Positions 9,721 to 21,384 of a stretch of 26,361 nucleotides of DNA are shown here, one piece after another (position 1 is the first letter of the stretch; every line of letters starts with the position of its first letter). The translations under genes and the position numbers were made by a program. The stretch comes from a virus, in the IMG/VR virus record IMGVR_UViG_3300002036_000001, positions 72,506 through 98,866 of that record; one strand, written 5' to 3'. A model generated the notes under the pieces. It did not search any database and had not been told where the DNA came from. It saw only the letters and a program-made list of their open reading frames with translations.

Positions 9721-10042
9721 TATTTTTTAGGTTTTTATCAATAAATCTATCATCCATGTCTTTTCTAAATAAAAACATATATGACAGAAACATTGCATTA
9801 CATAATATATGTCCTACATGAGCTAATTTACTTTCTTTATCTTTGTTTTCTCCATCTATAAAAGATATGAGATGTCTCATAAGGCTCTCACATATTTCTG
9901 AATATTTTAGTCCTTTTTTCCAATTATGTGAATCATATTTCTTTGCTCCAAACATTAGAACCTTAACCATAGGCTCTAATGCTCTGAAACTTGTTAAGGA
10001 CCAATTTAATTTATTTTTATTATCTCTAGTTCCTATCTCCAT
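9710..10042 (-). CDS. dATP/dGTP diphosphohydrolase domain protein (DUF5664-like)
   Basis: KL.W.L, VLMFGAKKY..HNWKKG, SLMRH, GE..D.ES.LAH.GH..CN.MFL. Confidence 0.85.
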   Translation of the reverse strand: MEIGTRDNKNKLNWSLTSFRALEPMVKVLMFGAKKYDSHNWKKGLKYSEICESLMRHLISFIDGENKDKESKLAHVGHILCNAMFLSYMFLFRKDMDDRFIDKNLKNNED

Positions 10043-10997
10043 TTATTCTCTTTCTAATACTATTAATAAAATTTTTAACCTTGTTTATTCCTATTAGGTC
10101 ATTAGATAATGGAAGTTCTTTGAAAAAATTAACAGCTCCATCAAAATATAAAGGACATATTGTTCCTCCTCCACCTTGTCTACTTGCTAAAATTTCTAAA
10201 AATCTTATATTATCTCGAAAAAAAGTAACATCATAACCTTGATATTCTTTAATTTCATGTCTAAAAGGACTAAAAAGCCCTAAAATAGTATCTGCATCTC
10301 TATGAGTTAATTTACAATCACCTAGTCCATCCATTGATGGTTTTAATTTGTTTGATCTGAAATTATCTAAACTCTCTTGAGAAGCTGCTTGTTGTTGAAT
10401 AACTACTGGTATATAGTTAAATTTATTTCTTAACCTAATTAAATAATTAGAAGATAATTCTACTATAGAAGCATGTAGACCTAGTTGAACTCCTCCTCTT
10501 CTTTCAGGAGAAATTAAACTAATATGATCTATGATAACCATGACATATTCTTCCTTATTATCAGGTTCATACCAATCATCTATTTCCTTTTCTACTACTT
10601 CACCAGTTTTATTATTAACAAAAGGTACTATTTTTTTATGTTGTGTACCATTATTTAAAGCATATTCATTTACAAATTTAAAAATTCCTGTTGGATTTCT
10701 TATATCATCTATGAATTCTACAATCTCTTCTATTTTATCAAAATATGGTTGATATTTTTCAATTAAAGTTATTGTTTTTTCATCTAATACTCCGCTTTCT
10801 CTAGTACTAGTTAAATCTTTAGGAGAAATTCGTACACCTTCCTTCTCATAAAGAATATTAGAAAATGCTGATAACATTTTCTGCTCCTTAGACATTTCTA
10901 AGGAAAAATAAAATATTTTTAATTTAATATTTAGTTTCAAATCTATAACCCTTTTTATAGCGTTATATACAAATAACGAATCTGTTATTTGAGTTTT
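10026..10997 (-). CDS. dnaB: DnaB-like replicative helicase, exon 3 (KTQITD... to stop)
   Basis: Starts with the KT of Walker A; YFSLEM, VIIDHISL, QQ, GLGDCK..HRDAD, SRQG. Immediately preceded by the intron terminal G at 10998. Confidence 0.92.
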   Translation of the reverse strand, partial: KTQITDSLFVYNAIKRVIDLKLNIKLKIFYFSLEMSKEQKMLSAFSNILYEKEGVRISPKDLTSTRESGVLDEKTITLIEKYQPYFDKIEEIVEFIDDIRNPTGIFKFVNEYALNNGTQHKKIVPFVNNKTGEVVEKEIDDWYEPDNKEEYVMVIIDHISLISPERRGGVQLGLHASIVELSSNYLIRLRNKFNYIPVVIQQQAASQESLDNFRSNKLKPSMDGLGDCKLTHRDADTILGLFSPFRHEIKEYQGYDVTFFRDNIRFLEILASRQGGGGTICPLYFDGAVNFFKELPLSNDLIGINKVKNFINSIRKRINGDRN

Positions 10998-11010
10998 CAA
11001 TTTTGTTACT

Positions 11011-11565
11011 TTAAAATCTTTTTACACCTTCTTTAATTTCTTTAGATAAATATCCCATACCTTTCAATATATTATATAGAGAATATTCTCCAACTCCTTT
11101 GTTATTCCATTCTTTAATAGAATCGCTATAATTATTTACTAATACTCCAAATCTATATTGAGACTTTAGAAGAATTATAAGAGTTGTAATAGATATTTCT
11201 TTTTTCTGAAATTTATCTATTGTTTTATTATCCCAAGTATGTACTACCCATTTTTTAATATCTGGACAAAATATTATAGCAAGTCTTGTCTTTGTTATAT
11301 TTAATTCTATTAATACTTTAATAGCTTTACAAAGTTCTGAAAAACTTATTTTTATACCTTGTGTTAGTAATACTGAATAAATATCTCCAAATGATCTAGC
11401 TTTTCCACTTGAACAAGTTCTTTCTGATACGTTTGTTCCAGATTCGTTAGACTTGCTAAAAGTGGCTGGAAATCCATAAAAATCATTGTAAAGCCTTTGA
11501 AGATATAATAATAAAGGTTCACTTTTTTCTTTTCTATATTGTTTTCTTAAATATAATTTTTTCAT
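11011..11565 (-). CDS. hypothetical protein in loop L9.2 of intron 2
   Basis: 184-aa ORF closed by perfect 10-bp stem UUAAAAUCUU (11572-11581) / AAGAUUUUAA (11011-11020). Confidence 0.8.
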   Translation of the reverse strand: MKKLYLRKQYRKEKSEPLLLYLQRLYNDFYGFPATFSKSNESGTNVSERTCSSGKARSFGDIYSVLLTQGIKISFSELCKAIKVLIELNITKTRLAIIFCPDIKKWVVHTWDNKTIDKFQKKEISITTLIILLKSQYRFGVLVNNYSDSIKEWNNKGVGEYSLYNILKGMGYLSKEIKEGVKRF

Positions 11566-11583
11566 TTTTTTAAGATTTTAAGA

Positions 11584-11994
11584 TCAAGTTATTTCTACTT
11601 GATTCTGAAATTTATTATAATATGATTTTTCTAATATCTCTATTATTTCTTTTTCTTTATTATACTCGTCTGTATTATATTCATTAGGATTAAATTTGTA
11701 AACATTATCTATTTTATCTATTACAAATTTCCAATGTCCTGTACCTGGAGTAGCATTTTCAAATACTAAAGTATCTACATTACCACAATACAGACAATTT
11801 AAGTAATTTTCCCCTAATAAAGTCATTATTTCTGCATTTATTTTATCAGAATTTACTTTATCTTCAAATAAGTATTCATGTATGTAATCTAAAGTAACTC
11901 CTGTATATAAGTCTTCGCAAACTGTATCCAATACTTCTAAATATTTTTCAGAGAAATATTCTTTTAATTTTTTATTTATTTCTTTACTGTTCAT
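11584..11994 (-). CDS. hypothetical acidic protein in loop L9 of intron 2
   Basis: 136-aa ORF within stem CUGAAA (12007-12012) / UUUCAG (11605-11610); last codons form hairpin P9.1 (11583-11603). Confidence 0.78.
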   Translation of the reverse strand: MNSKEINKKLKEYFSEKYLEVLDTVCEDLYTGVTLDYIHEYLFEDKVNSDKINAEIMTLLGENYLNCLYCGNVDTLVFENATPGTGHWKFVIDKIDNVYKFNPNEYNTDEYNKEKEIIEILEKSYYNKFQNQVEIT

Positions 11995-12031
11995 ATTAAT
12001 TTATTTTTTCAGTTCGGACTGTTTCATTAAC

Positions 12032-12373
12032 CTAATAATTACTATAAGGAAATAATACTCCATATACATCACATTTCTTTCTAGAGAGTGTGTCTCCAGA
12101 TCCTGTTTTGTGATAATGTGAAATTAGATCTACTATTTCTTCATATTTTAAATTTAAATAATTACCTTCATAATATATTCCATTTTTAGGTCTTTCCTTG
12201 TCAGTCTCTACACCGTTTTGTAGTAAATTTTTAGCATATTCTTTTTCAGATTTCCAATGTGAAGGATATTTTTTATTATAAGCTTCACTAAGTTTATCTA
12301 AAAAATAATTTAATATGTTAATCAATTCACTATCAAGTGACGGCACGAGATTATCTTTTATATTTTTTTCCAT
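12032..12373 (-). CDS. hypothetical protein overlapping the catalytic core of intron 2
   Basis: 113-aa ORF; DNLVPS encodes the P4'/P6 strand, GVETDKERP encodes P6'/P7/P3'/P8, stop lies in P8'. Confidence 0.6.
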   Translation of the reverse strand: MEKNIKDNLVPSLDSELINILNYFLDKLSEAYNKKYPSHWKSEKEYAKNLLQNGVETDKERPKNGIYYEGNYLNLKYEEIVDLISHYHKTGSGDTLSRKKCDVYGVLFPYSNY

Positions 12374-12777
12374 AAGTATAAATGTTGTAGTTTATTATTA
12401 TGTCTAGGATTTTTATAACTAATTATATCTTTAAAACCAACTTCTAATAAAGCCTTAGAAAAAGGATTATCCACATAAGTACTTCCTACAACTGTTTGAA
12501 TCATTCCTATATCACTAGTGAAATAAGAATGATTGGCATTATCAGGCTTTAATTGCCTTTTTTTTAATTTTTCTTTAAATTTTTCTAGTGTTTTTACTAT
12601 ATTTTCTATTTCTTGGCATGTAGTAGATTTCCAATCATGTAGTATGTATGATCCACATCCTGATGGATTTTCTTTTAGTTTAAAACTTACTAAAAGATTT
12701 TCTCCATTTATTTTATGTAATTCACTTACTTGTAAATAATTATGCCATTTTCCTTTTTCTATTAAACTTACTTTCAT
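12358..12777 (-). CDS. putative GNAT-like protein in loop L5 of intron 2
   Basis: 139 aa; P.GCG..IL and ALLEVGF...SYKN; enclosed by P5 AUCUU (12785-12789) / AAGAU (12353-12357). Function inferred. Confidence 0.7.
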   Translation of the reverse strand: MKVSLIEKGKWHNYLQVSELHKINGENLLVSFKLKENPSGCGSYILHDWKSTTCQEIENIVKTLEKFKEKLKKRQLKPDNANHSYFTSDIGMIQTVVGSTYVDNPFSKALLEVGFKDIISYKNPRHNNKLQHLYLWKKI

Positions 12778-12854
12778 TTTATATAAGATTTTCCTCGTTA
12801 GCTAATATTTCTATTAACCCTCCTGTAAGGAGATTCGGATTTTTAGTTATTTTT

Positions 12855-13496
12855 TTATAAACGGTGATATACTTTTATCATATTTCCAGAATTAACATTT
12901 TTATAAGAAAATTGAAGACTAAACCCTAATCTTTCTACAAAATTTATCGCAGATCTCTGCTTATGAGATAAGTGAGCAAGTTTTGCACAACCAATTTCTT
13001 TTAAACATTCTTTTATATAATTTATTTCCTCTTCTGTAAGAGTTATTAATACAGAATGTATTTTAGGAACCTCTTCAAAACCATATAATATCATACATCC
13101 ACAACAATCTGGATGTGGTTTAGTAGAAAATAATCTAATAGGTTTATTATTAACACTTACAAAAGATTGTACTCCATATTCTTTAATATATTTTGTATTA
13201 ACTTTAGTTAAAAAATAATCATGAGAGCTGATATGTGAATTATTTATTTTTTTAATAAAAAGTTTTTCTTTTTTTTGTATTTGTGTATTTCCCTTTACTA
13301 TTTCTAAAAGAGTTATTTTTCCTTTTTCTAAATCATAAGAATTGAATCCATATATTTTAGAATATAGAATACTTCCATTAAAATTAGGAGGTCCTATCTT
13401 ATCTTGAAAAAAACTATAATAATTTCCTCTTTTTCTTATTACTCCTTGATATTTTTTACCTTTTATTTTTAATGTTACAAAATCACCTGTTTTCAT
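12855..13496 (-). CDS. putative GNAT-like protein in the loop of a P2.1 stem of intron 2
   Basis: 213 aa; PDCCGCMIL and AINFVERLGF...SYKN; enclosed by AGUUAUU (13521-13527) / AAUAACU (12845-12851). Function inferred. Confidence 0.7.
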   Translation of the reverse strand: MKTGDFVTLKIKGKKYQGVIRKRGNYYSFFQDKIGPPNFNGSILYSKIYGFNSYDLEKGKITLLEIVKGNTQIQKKEKLFIKKINNSHISSHDYFLTKVNTKYIKEYGVQSFVSVNNKPIRLFSTKPHPDCCGCMILYGFEEVPKIHSVLITLTEEEINYIKECLKEIGCAKLAHLSHKQRSAINFVERLGFSLQFSYKNVNSGNMIKVYHRL

Positions 13497-13564
13497 TTTT
13501 TATATTTTTATATTTTTTATAATAACTTTACCATAATTGTTACCAATTACAGGGGCAAAAATCT

Positions 13565-13573
13565 ACCCACTTT
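13565..13573 (-). CDS. dnaB: DnaB-like helicase exon 2: 9-nt micro-exon AAA GTG GGT (KVG)
   Basis: Preceded by G, ends in U, and restores Walker A TANS-KVG-KT in frame. Confidence 0.9.
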
Positions 13574-13611
13574 CGTTTATATTCCATAAAGTTCGTAACT
13601 ACTTTATGCGT

Positions 13612-13740
13612 TTAATCAATTTTAATTTCTGTTAAATTATCAACAGTTATAGATGCTCCATTTATAAACTCTATTATAAATTTATCACCATCTTCGTAAA
13701 TTTTTACTTTATGTTTATTTTTGTAAATCCCCACTTTCAT
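13612..13740 (-). CDS. 42-aa ORF in loop L9.1 of intron 1
   Basis: MKVGIYKNKHKVKIYEDGDKFIIEFINGASITVDNLTEIKID; A-rich leader; enclosed by 11-bp stem 13754-13764 / 13610-13620. Confidence 0.55.
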   Translation of the reverse strand: MKVGIYKNKHKVKIYEDGDKFIIEFINGASITVDNLTEIKID

Positions 13741-13909
13741 AATTTTATTTTTTATTAATTAAACTGCTATATATTTCTATATAGACTGGACTATATCTTC
13801 ATCTCACTGAGATGCCCTCCGCTTCCAATACCATTAACTTGTATTGTACGTGCTTTATTGCACTAGTCTCTGAACCTTAATTTAATCTTGGCTGCTGATT
13901 GTCATATAT

Positions 13910-13935
13910 AAAAAAAGACACTATTAAAGTGTCTT
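13910..13935 (-). terminator. terminator-like hairpin within the P5 extension of intron 1
   Basis: AAGACAC-UUUAAUA-GUGUCUU then UUUUU, about 40 nt after the endonuclease stop. Confidence 0.4.
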
Positions 13936-13976
13936 AAATTATACTTAGATTTTCCAGCAATTCAAAGGGTAATCAT

Positions 13977-14687
13977 CTAGATGTCACCATCTAGCGTAGC
14001 TTTTATTATTAAATATTTCTTTTTAAATTTCCTTTCAGTTTTAATACCTTTTGATATTTCACTTGGAAAGTAACCAAAATATTTTGCACAATCTTGTAAT
14101 GAATTAAAAACTTTATATACTTCATTTGTATTAATATTTTTAACTATAACTTTTTTGCACATATAAGAATTATCTTTTTTAGATTTAACATAAGGATTTA
14201 ACGATTTTTTATAATCTAATGACCATAAATACCCTCCTCCTTTATTATAAGTTCCATTTAAAAATCTACAAATTGTAGATTGACTTATATTATTATCAAG
14301 ACAAGCTTGTTTTATATAATCATATTTTTTAATAAATGTACCATCTAAACTATATTGATATATTTCTTTACCTGTAATTATATTATTAACCACATCTTTT
14401 ATGAAGTTAAATTCAGGTTTTAAATTATTAATATAAAATTGTTCTCTTTTTATAAGAATATTTTTATCACAAAATTCTAATATAATATATATAAAATTTT
14501 TAGATTTATTTTTATTCCAAGAATTCTGTAAATAATCATTATGATGTTTATTATTTCTTAACATCATTTTATGATTAATAATTCTATCATAAATATTTTT
14601 TGAACTTCCTATATATTTTTTTTGGTTTTTTAAATTTAAAATACAATAAATACCTGATTTTTTACACTGTTTATTTAATTTTTGCAT
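13977..14687 (-). CDS. GIY-YIG homing endonuclease with NUMOD1-like repeats, in L1 of intron 1
   Basis: SGIYCI..L.N.K.YIGSS.N...R...H, REQFYI, PEFN; C-terminal IYQYSLDG.FIK.Y...A..GGY.W and FNSL..CA repeats. ATG 14687 preferred over TTG 14708, which is part of the promoter. Confidence 0.92.
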   Translation of the reverse strand: MQKLNKQCKKSGIYCILNLKNQKKYIGSSKNIYDRIINHKMMLRNNKHHNDYLQNSWNKNKSKNFIYIILEFCDKNILIKREQFYINNLKPEFNFIKDVVNNIITGKEIYQYSLDGTFIKKYDYIKQACLDNNISQSTICRFLNGTYNKGGGYLWSLDYKKSLNPYVKSKKDNSYMCKKVIVKNINTNEVYKVFNSLQDCAKYFGYFPSEISKGIKTERKFKKKYLIIKATLDGDI

Positions 14688-14705
14688 AAATTTTTTAATT
14701 TTATA

Positions 14706-14736
14706 CAAAAATACGAAATTTTTATGTAAATGTCAA
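14706..14736 (-). promoter_or_regulatory. Bacteroidota sigma-A-type promoter for the homing endonuclease
   Basis: TTG (14734-14736), 20-nt spacer, TATTTTTG (14706-14713) matching -33 TTG / -7 TAnnTTTG. Confidence 0.7.
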
Positions 14737-14771
14737 GTAATTAACGCATTATTTTTTGATTATTTAAAAAA

Positions 14772-14927
14772 ACTATTTGCTGTAACTAAATAATATTTAC
14801 CTTGTTCTATTCCTGGATTTTCATTTTCAAATCTAGGTAATCCCCAAGGTATACAATTAATTTTACCAGAAAGAATTCTATTCCTTCTTTTTTTTATGCT
14901 AGTTAGCACTCTATTAAATAAACTCAT
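14772..14927 (-). CDS. dnaB: DnaB-like helicase exon 1 (52 codons)
   Basis: MSLFNRVLTSIKKRRNRILSGKINCIPWGLPRFENENPGIEQGKYYLVTANS; typical pre-Walker A segment; ends in U. Confidence 0.92.
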
Positions 14928-21162: not shown

Positions 21163-21384
21163 TTATATAAATAATTTTTTCTTTAAAGCTTCTTTTGTTT
21201 TTCCTATAAGAGATTCTCTCATTGTTATTCTATTATCTCCTAAAAAGGATAATTTATACTCTACTAAAGTTCTTTTATTATAAATATCTTTTCTTATTTC
21301 AATTGATTTAACAATTGCTTTTATAGGTAATTTCATTGGAGGAATTACCCATACTTCTTCATCTATATTAAACTCTGTACTCAT
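21163..21384 (-). CDS. hypothetical protein
   Basis: 73-aa ORF. Confidence 0.7.
   Translation of the reverse strand: MSTEFNIDEEVWVIPPMKLPIKAIVKSIEIRKDIYNKRTLVEYKLSFLGDNRITMRESLIGKTKEALKKKLFI

Follow-up and report, generated by a model that had tools for sequence, protein, structure and literature searches.

A probable td-like group I intron whose ribozyme is interrupted by five genes in the only DnaB-type helicase gene of a crAss-like phage

The stretch of DNA described here (positions 72,506 to 98,866 of IMG/VR record IMGVR_UViG_3300002036_000001; 26,361 nt, hereafter the window) is part of a complete 98.9-kb genome of a crAss-like phage, described as marine; among cultured phages, Cellulophaga phage phi14:2 (Crassvirales, Steigviridae) is related to it most closely. 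The genes of the stretch lie on the minus strand, and its G+C content is about 25%. The locus of interest carries the DnaB-type replicative helicase, the sole copy in the genome, which is found in three pieces (exon 1, a 9-nt micro-exon and exon 3) separated by two inserts, intron 1 and intron 2. Intron 2 splits the Walker A motif between the G and K codons (ANSKVG|KTQ). The parts of the locus, in the direction of transcription, are:

14772..14927, minus strand: helicase exon 1 (MSLF...YYLVTANS), 75% identical to phi14:2 g024 and ending ..GCA AAT AGT
13574..14771, minus strand: intron 1, a mobile group I intron with a GIY-YIG/NUMOD open reading frame (ORF) and a group I core
13565..13573, minus strand: 9-nt micro-exon AAAGTGGGT (KVG of Walker A); the intron-less relative L007 reads AGT AAA GTA GGT AAA ACA
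10998..13564, minus strand: intron 2, a probable td-like (IA2) group I intron of 2,567 nt, recognised by covariation from P3 to P10, a common insertion site and a terminal G
10026..10997, minus strand: helicase exon 3 (KTQITD... to the stop codon), with a DnaB_C match and 42–74% identity to crAss-like replicative helicases

Intron 2 is almost filled by five ORFs, and these are real: 91.7% of its sense strand lies in ORFs of 100 codons or more and only 213 nt fall outside ORFs, none of 1,000 shuffles gives any ORF of this size, and no antisense ORF exceeds 31 codons. At the protein level, all five are related to ORFs of other introns in the family described below:

12855..13496, minus strand: ORF213, family X, a small N-terminal domain followed by a putative GNAT-fold domain; 34% identity to ORF301 of relative L004 (E 6.5e-24), family hidden Markov model E 6e-53
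12358..12777, minus strand: ORF139, family X, putative GNAT fold only; AlphaFold2 predicted local distance difference test (pLDDT) 68, predicted template modelling score (pTM) 0.60
12032..12373, minus strand: ORF113, the core ORF, in frame through P4'-L6-P6'-P7-P3'-P8-L8, with its stop in the P8 3' strand
11584..11994, minus strand: ORF136, a divergent member of family Y, which clusters with ORF156 of relative L021 and aligns with the family Y motifs
11011..11565, minus strand: ORF184, family Y, winged-helix-like; 33% identity to ORF171 of relative L005 (E 6e-19)

Judged by its sequence and that of its relatives, intron 2 is very probably a single group I intron of the td-like (IA2) type, with a ribozyme split by the five genes and inserted in the only DnaB-type helicase of this phage. 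The strands assigned to the ribozyme lie between and inside the ORFs:

13531..13568, minus strand: P1 and P2; GGGU 13568-13565 pairs with the guide GCCC 13556-13553, and the P2 hairpin (13552-13531) has a GUAA loop
12845..13527, minus strand: 7-bp stem AGUUAUU/AAUAACU around ORF213, in J2/3; arms 13527-13521 and 12851-12845
12794..12840, minus strand: P3 5' strand to P4 5' strand, with AUCC 12840-12837, P2.1 12832-12820, hairpin H (GAAA loop) 12819-12800, J3/4, and ACGAG 12798-12794
12354..12788, minus strand: P5, looping out ORF139; arms 12788-12781 with 12363-12354
12016..12349, minus strand: catalytic core strands, P4' 12349-12345, P6 12344-12340 with 12216-12212, P7 12208-12202 with 12021-12016, P3' 12197-12194, P8 12192-12187 with 12034-12029, and J8/7 AUGAAA
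11605..12012, minus strand: P9, looping out ORF136; CUGAAA 12012-12007 with UUUCAG 11610-11605, then the P9.1 hairpin at about 11603-11584
11011..11581, minus strand: P9.2, a perfect 10-bp stem (UUAAAAUCUU/AAGAUUUUAA) looping out ORF184; 11581-11572 with 11020-11011
10998..11010, minus strand: conserved 3' tail AGUAACAAAAUUG; AGTAACAAAnTTG|AAAAC in nearly all helicase-site members

This arrangement would place ORF213 in the J2/3 stem, ORF139 in L5, ORF136 in L9 and ORF184 in L9.2, with ORF113 passing in frame across L6, the core strands and L8, so that the P4'-P6-P7-P3'-P8 strands are located inside ORF113. P1 has a U.G pair at the 5' splice site, and P7 has a bulged A12207. G10998 ends the intron directly before AAA ACT CAA, and a terminal G occupies the 3' splice site in all 15 complete introns of the family. 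The 2,567 nt contain a single set of P, Q, R and S blocks, and the whole genome contains a single R block, which argues for one intron and not for a nest of several.

By itself, the window sequence exceeds chance only in part. When the duplexes formed by the flanks of the 41 minus-strand ORFs of the window are ranked, those of ORF139 (-15.9 kcal) and ORF184 (-15.0 kcal) come second and third, and those of ORF213, ORF136 and ORF113 are unremarkable. With two of five ORF-closing stems standing out, the case rests on comparison with relatives. A condensed version of the intron, in which the ORF interiors are replaced by GAAA (340 nt), folds at -77.3 kcal/mol compared to -43.2 +/- 4.6 for shuffles (z = -7.4, ViennaRNA), but its cut points were chosen by us, so the fold is supportive only. 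The minimum free energy structure contains P1, P2, the 7-bp stem, P2.1, a further hairpin, P4–P9, P9.1 and P9.2, i.e. all non-pseudoknotted helices.

Relatives were collected from IMG/VR with a protein-based scan and a pattern scan for the R block. About 25 non-redundant loci carry the same element, nearly all of them at the same helicase site, and the insert ranges from 1,157 to 3,574 nt in loci containing both ends. Phi14:2 and about 20 viral contigs share the insertion codon. P3, P4, P5, P6, P7, P8, P9, P9.2 and P10 are kept in the relatives with compensatory changes in all but P6, which is invariant and hence uninformative for covariation. In an alignment of 22 loci, P6, P7 and P8 are 99.7% paired with five doubly changed pairs; none of 500 shuffles reaches any of these measures, and slid controls are 24–38% paired. 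P7 alternates between GACUG/CAGUC and GACUA/UAGUC, and the outer position of P8 shows five pair types. P3 is formed by YUCM, within a conserved AAAAYUCMGAAU just after P2, and the four bases that follow GACUR-ACAA (YUCM/KGRR). Of its 84 cells, 81 are paired, and three of its four positions show three or four pair types (CUCA/UGAG, UUCC/GGAA, CUCU/AGAG and CACC/GGUG). Two earlier candidates for P3 (UUAGCU upstream of P4 pairing downstream, and GGGUU with AACCU) showed no covariation and were dropped; UUAGCU is the 3' arm of a local hairpin.

The helices that close the gene-bearing loops vary in a similar manner. P4 is usually ACGGG/CCCGU and is compensated to ACGAG/CUCGU in the window and in L057, while P5 occurs as UCUUU/AAAGA, UCAUU/AAUGA, CCAUU/AAUGG and UCCUU/AAGGA around loops of 33 to 1,052 nt. 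Hairpin H covaries (GGUUAA../..UUAGCU vs CUUUAU../..AUAGGG). In P9, CUAUAA/UUAUAG of the relatives is CUGAAA/UUUCAG in the window, with two positions changed on both sides, and where P9 holds no ORF it is a td-like hairpin with a AUGGUGACAU loop. The P9.2 stem has a different sequence in every locus and is a plain hairpin without an ORF in L019; the stem given above was read directly from the ORF flanks, whereas an unconstrained partner scan chose an internal ORF segment in the window. The sequence of P2 differs per locus but always pairs. P10 is formed between the 5' end of the intron and the start of exon 3 and covaries as well (GUUUU with AAAAC, UGAUUU with AAAUCA).

Between these variable stems, the blocks themselves are conserved. 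The 5' end reads AAAGTGGGT|AGA..TTTGCCCC in all helicase-site members, and the pattern GGGU|AGA..UUUGCCCC of the window and all its helicase-site relatives is replaced by GCGU|...GCGCC in members at a second, SNF2-type site. It is followed by the P element AACGGGGAAA, the Q element GACAAUCCCGUGCCGUCA, the R element ACGGUGUAGAGACURACAA, the S element with P8' AGGUUGAUGAGAYAGUCC, and the 3' tail AGUAACAAAnUUG|AAAAC. The blocks that we call td-like (AACGGGGAAA..., GACAAUCCCGUGCC, GAGACUR..., GAGAYAGUCC and the P9 AUGGUGACAU loop) are identical or nearly so in 22 loci. On the likeness of these blocks and of the P9 loop, we take the core to be homologous to that of the T4 td intron (IA2). In the compact relative L033, these blocks align to the Rfam group I model RF00028 (Intron_gpI), on which L033 scores 47.3 bits (E 2.8e-11, model positions 1-253) against a gathering score of 50 bits.

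In L033 (10140-11185) and L060, this ribozyme, its Q, R and S blocks identical, interrupts a different gene, an SF2/SNF2-type helicase cut at motif VI (QR|IGRVVR), which means at least one past move of the family. The core is free of inserts in L033 and has one in L060, an 80-codon ORF in L8. The element at this second site was also seen to have one 275-aa ORF, its family unassigned, beside its compact core.

At the helicase site, the allele without the insert also exists. L007 reads AGT AAA GTA GGT AAA ACA CAA across the exact ANSKVG|KTQ junction, so the predicted exon junction occurs in nature as DNA. The helicases of L002, L012 and L013 are likewise contiguous, and exon 1 is continuous with the rest of the helicase in L007, L002 and L012. 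In phi14:2 (L001, NC_021806, 12982-16707), the insert at the same codon boundary (KVG|KS) is 2,616 nt long and contains four ORFs (g025–g028). RefSeq lists the flanking g024 (hypothetical) and g029 (DnaB, truncated) as separate genes; from their sequences they appear to be the two exons of one helicase, with g025–g028 as intron ORFs, and the predicted junction is AAAGTGGGT-AAATCACAA, i.e. ...AATAGTAAAGTGGGT would be joined to AAATCACAAATT. The neighbouring DNA polymerase of phi14:2 is already annotated as joined.

The boundaries at 10998 and 13564, with the G before AAA ACT, had been proposed in an initial annotation made from the letters of this stretch, and they are exact. Every helix it named is present (P1/P2, the 7-bp stem, P5, the core strands in ORF113, P9 and P9.2), and its central proposal of one group I intron broken up by five genes is borne out by the single P/Q/R/S set and by covariation in relatives. 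The comparison of related loci that it suggested gave one to six ORFs at six positions and covariation of P3–P10 except P6.

A number of observations weigh against this assignment, beside our choice of the cut points. Splicing is so far a prediction from sequence. An Rfam cmscan of the window, at the gathering threshold and also at E <= 10, matched neither intron 1 nor intron 2; the core of intron 2 is too interrupted. The 7-bp stem around ORF213 was read directly and is recovered in the condensed fold but has no comparative support, the ORF213 position in J2/3 being empty in most relatives. Two hairpins between P3 and J3/4 are unusual for group I introns, and folding should face competition from the translation of five ORFs, of which one runs across the core. 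The window copy also departs from its relatives in that P3 has only three of four pairs, the outermost P8 pair is A.A, and J8/7 (12022) reads AUGAAA where 21 of 22 loci have AUGAGA. Because of these three departures, the activity of the window ribozyme may be reduced.

The most unusual of the five genes is ORF113. Core ORFs typically begin 15–21 nt ahead of Q and end in the P8 3' strand, with Q read as DNPVPSLD and R as NGVETDKEQP. The distance from Q to R is a multiple of three in 25 of 25 loci, in spite of 13 different lengths, and 24 of the 25 have an open frame. As the frame is kept across loci, the core ORF appears to be translated and the ribozyme core appears to be dual-coded. Many core-ORF members have Cys-rich, zinc-ribbon-like tails, and even the compact L033 keeps a 26-codon remnant.

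Family X includes ORF139 and ORF213 and is found in 12 of 13 complete helicase-site introns. All top PDB matches of the ORF139 model are GNAT acetyltransferases (Foldseek E 4e-4; VIA Z 9.2, 114/139 aligned, root-mean-square deviation 3.1), and this moderate-confidence model suggests that ORF139 and the C-terminal half of ORF213 have the GNAT alpha/beta fold. The motifs of the family are CCG, TDNQ and NPNSGNxI; in its consensus HLSxxQxxxxxxLxxLG, the G-x-G/A of the acetyl-CoA motif (Q/R-x-x-G-x-G/A) is not visible by eye. No Pfam GNAT model matches the family; of 63 members, 10 are matched by DUF6501. When 1.84 billion representative proteins were searched exhaustively with a profile, only 105 members were found, and the two non-self matches with contigs read (P0007 and P0013) are both in the same helicase intron; a word-index protein search with ORF213 matched ORF213 only.

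Family Y, with the motifs RSFGDL and CPDIxKxVF, is rare, and its profile found six proteins. The AlphaFold2 model of ORF184 (pLDDT 74, pTM 0.76) aligns over residues 13–116 to domains of the MarR, Fur and PadR type with Z 5–5.9, a range that can reflect a common arrangement, so the winged-helix resemblance is weak; Foldseek gave no match for ORF184 in the PDB at E <= 0.001. At the position of ORF136, L057 has a 134-aa ORF with an N-terminus that is similar by eye.

Searches with Pfam and PHROG (E <= 0.01) for the known homing endonuclease families (LAGLIDADG, GIY-YIG, HNH, His-Cys, PD-(D/E)xK and EDxHD) found none in the five window ORFs and none in 51 ORFs from 14 introns, the only exception being a LAGLIDADG_2 gene in L057 (1.4e-18; 11220-11849, minus strand). 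It lies inside the P7 3' strand, between GAGAUAGU and CC, and the layout after the core is that of the window, with ORF136-like and ORF184-like genes; L057 is either a disabled member, or its LAGLIDADG_2 insert is removed separately. Among the ORFs without a match, an endonuclease of a new type is conceivable. Relatives carry one to six ORFs at six different positions, and families shift between loops: L004 has family Y in the P3–P4 region, the window has it in P9.2. This variability fits a gene-carrying intron in which passenger genes would turn over and move between loops. By sequence, the passengers look like three intron-resident families (X, Y and the core ORF), known to date only from within or beside introns of this family, with mobility, maturase activity, regulation and selfish cargo as their candidate roles.

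The helicase tree shows how the intron might have been inherited. L007 is nested in a clade (support 99/97) whose other members all bear the intron, which is consistent with largely vertical inheritance; in L007, the intron would have been lost once and precisely, or an intron-minus allele would have survived. The whole is best explained if intron 2 is old in this phage lineage and mostly vertically inherited, which we consider very likely. The initial annotation, which correctly saw no GIY-YIG, HNH or LAGLIDADG motif in the five ORFs, had regarded the intron as a vehicle for accessory phage genes that could spread by co-conversion with the adjacent mobile intron. The gene-carrying intron with variable loops stands, but its genes belong to three recurrent intron-associated families and are not general accessory genes. 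Co-conversion is unnecessary: intron 2 occurs alone in phi14:2 and most relatives, and the tree is mainly vertical.

How would such an element be expressed? In phi14:2, the replication module is transcribed as an early class by the virion RNA polymerase (bioRxiv 10.1101/2020.03.07.982082). No intrinsic terminator was found inside intron 2, and with early-class transcription of the module this makes it probable that the precursor spans the whole 4.9 kb. A sigma-70 promoter scan was no better than shuffles (40 vs 34), with Bacteroidota-type and phage RNA polymerase promoters outside its scope. Long-range helices closing the gene-bearing loops would then assemble the core (P3–P8), and guanosine-initiated splicing would join ...AAAGTGGGT to AAAACTCAA, restoring ANSKVGKTQ. 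Intron 1 would be removed separately, which would leave the 9-nt micro-exon between the two introns. The intron genes would be expressed from the helicase pre-mRNA in the manner of an operon; splicing in vivo and the expression and functions of the ORFs are, in this scheme, inferred.

Translation and folding draw on the same nucleotides. The core ORF starts at or in the P5 3' arm and stops in P8', and the tails of ORF139, ORF136 and ORF184 overlap P5', P9'/P9.1 and P9.2', respectively, so translation and ribozyme folding should exclude each other. This suggests that splicing and intron-gene expression would take place on different molecules or at different times. The introns of phage T4 probably separate the two likewise.

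Whether the intron acts alone is another matter. It is possible, if rather unlikely, that the ribozyme is not self-sufficient and that its removal needs intron-encoded maturases (the core ORF or family Y) or host factors; we are just as hesitant about the related idea that some or all passengers are splicing or mobility factors and not cargo. P1 and P3 are weak (3–4 bp each) and the loops to be closed are very long, the core ORF and family X are nearly constant companions of the intron (24 of 25 loci and 12 of 13 complete helicase-site introns), the fold of family Y is of a nucleic-acid-binding type, and the families are rare in the databases searched, with those family X matches whose contigs were read lying in this intron family. 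Yet none of the window ORFs is similar to known maturases (LAGLIDADG type), L042 has no family X, no ORF of L019, L059 or L067 clusters with family Y in blastp, and L033 keeps a full core with only the 26-codon core-ORF remnant.

That the helicase is truly split or dead, with a 2.5-kb block of small genes inserted and its fragments serving as separate polypeptides or surviving as relics while a host helicase is used, is very improbable. RefSeq does list phi14:2 g024 and g029 separately, a 324-codon frame begins with a TTG at 11000, and spliced RNA has so far not been seen. However, the break divides the P-loop (ANSKVG|KT) and leaves both fragments without a Walker A motif, and both are conserved at 53–80% identity across phages. 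The ends of the insert are fixed to the nucleotide, with a P1 U.G pair, a terminal G and a covarying group I core, and there are the RF00028 match of the compact homologue and the exact intron-less allele. Slightly less probable still is a twintron, in which each ORF would reside in a small intron of its own: intron 1 is only 9 nt away and the LAGLIDADG gene in the P7 3' strand of L057 would need its own removal or would kill the ribozyme, but this reading was rejected on the single core set, the ORF-flanking stems are plain helices whose sequences vary by locus, and no second guide sequence or terminal-G context is conserved. Excision at the DNA level was also rejected, as no ORF matches a recombinase family and no flanking direct repeats were noticed, although no repeat search was run.

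The single td-like intron with a split ribozyme is thus the reading to be compared to known systems. Its likeness to the T4 introns td (IA2, I-TevI), nrdB and nrdD is presumably one of descent and comprises P4/P5/P4' (AACGGGGAA...GACAAUCCCGUGC), the bulged P7, P8-J8/7-P7' and the P9 AUGGUGACAU loop. Like td, intron 2 sits in an essential phage gene of nucleotide or DNA metabolism at a conserved catalytic motif and has an ORF in L6 that overlaps the core. The td intron, however, has one GIY-YIG homing endonuclease gene in one loop and is about 1 kb long, whereas intron 2 has five genes (one to six in relatives) at up to six positions. Unlike td, it has no recognisable endonuclease, is 92% coding, has two extra hairpins between P3 and P4, and has an ORF threading almost the whole core.

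Textbook bacterial and phage group I introns have no gene or one homing endonuclease gene (PMC3984707). ORF extension into the core is known in mobile bacterial and phage introns, where expression must be tightly controlled (PMC3984707, Fig. 2b), but these known overlaps involve endonuclease ORFs over part of the core; the small non-endonuclease ORF113 spans P4' to P8', and its frame is kept across variable L6 inserts in 25 loci. The hexacoral mitochondrial ND5-717 group I intron carries ordinary mitochondrial genes, all in P8 (PMC6545197). It resembles intron 2 in hosting several unrelated protein genes, in being stably inherited and in not actively homing, and differs from it in that the genes of intron 2 are intron-specific families spread across many loops of a phage intron. 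Endonuclease domains have revealed group I introns in crAss-like gut phages of the Delta and Zeta groups (MCP, PolB, primase, ATP_43b), so Crassvirales core genes are known to carry them; the parts of that study consulted here do not mention introns in the helicase Walker A or with multiple ORFs (Yutin et al. 2021, PMC7886860). In the open-access literature, we found no description of the phi14:2 helicase intron or of any group I intron, in phages or bacteria, that holds several non-endonuclease genes distributed over several loops.

A phage ribozyme thus appears to tolerate splitting by five or six genes in as many loops, one of them read through its own core, in a gene that the phage should need for replication. 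This poses a folding problem, since loops as long as 1 kb have to be bridged by helices during translation by ribosomes, and a regulatory one, since helicase output would depend on the competition of folding and translation. It also raises the question of what GNAT-fold and winged-helix-like proteins would do for an intron. We tentatively propose, with more doubt than confidence, that in this lineage a selfish element with one gene has become a heritable module with many, in which the ribozyme forms spacers totalling about 200 nt among up to six genes. These would belong to three families restricted to the intron, one of them translated across the catalytic core, and at least one family would be a new mobility, maturase or splicing-control factor. 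If so, translation and splicing of an essential replication gene would be mechanistically coupled. Phi14:2, a cultured phage with a four-gene member and existing infection RNA-seq (Drobysheva et al., bioRxiv 10.1101/2020.03.07.982082), makes these ideas directly testable. In annotation, the 'hypothetical protein' g024 and the truncated 'DnaB' g029 of phi14:2, and their counterparts in relatives, would become one helicase. Intron searches that rely on endonuclease domains or Rfam thresholds miss introns of this class.

Intron 1 is 1,198 nt long. Its endonuclease ORF (14708-13977) matches Pfam GIY-YIG at 4.5e-10, and in blastn intron 1 matches group I introns from Bacillus, Clostridioides and Vibrio phages. 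The core at 13999-13767 scores 91.2 bits on Rfam RF00028 in the genome search, a discrepancy with the cmscan of the window, which returned nothing for it. The two-intron layout is also found in L008 and L031 and in at least three lineages in all. The micro-exon lies between two unrelated group I introns and would have to serve as 3' exon for one and as 5' exon (P1) for the other; in L008 it reads AAAATTGGT. A mini-ORF is present in intron 1:

13612-13740, minus strand: o42

The start of o42, ATG AAA GTG GGG, is a near copy of the micro-exon 160 nt downstream, and L008 has a longer Cys-rich ORF (CPKC) at this position. In a more distant helicase clade (L014–L018 and L020), an insertion of about 1.2 kb, presumably another intron or an intein, lies near residue 162 of the C-terminal part of the helicase. 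Elsewhere in the window, a 73-codon ORF (21163-21384, minus strand) has the strongest flank duplex of any window ORF (-16.5 kcal/mol) and might be another stem-closed insertion or a structured RNA.

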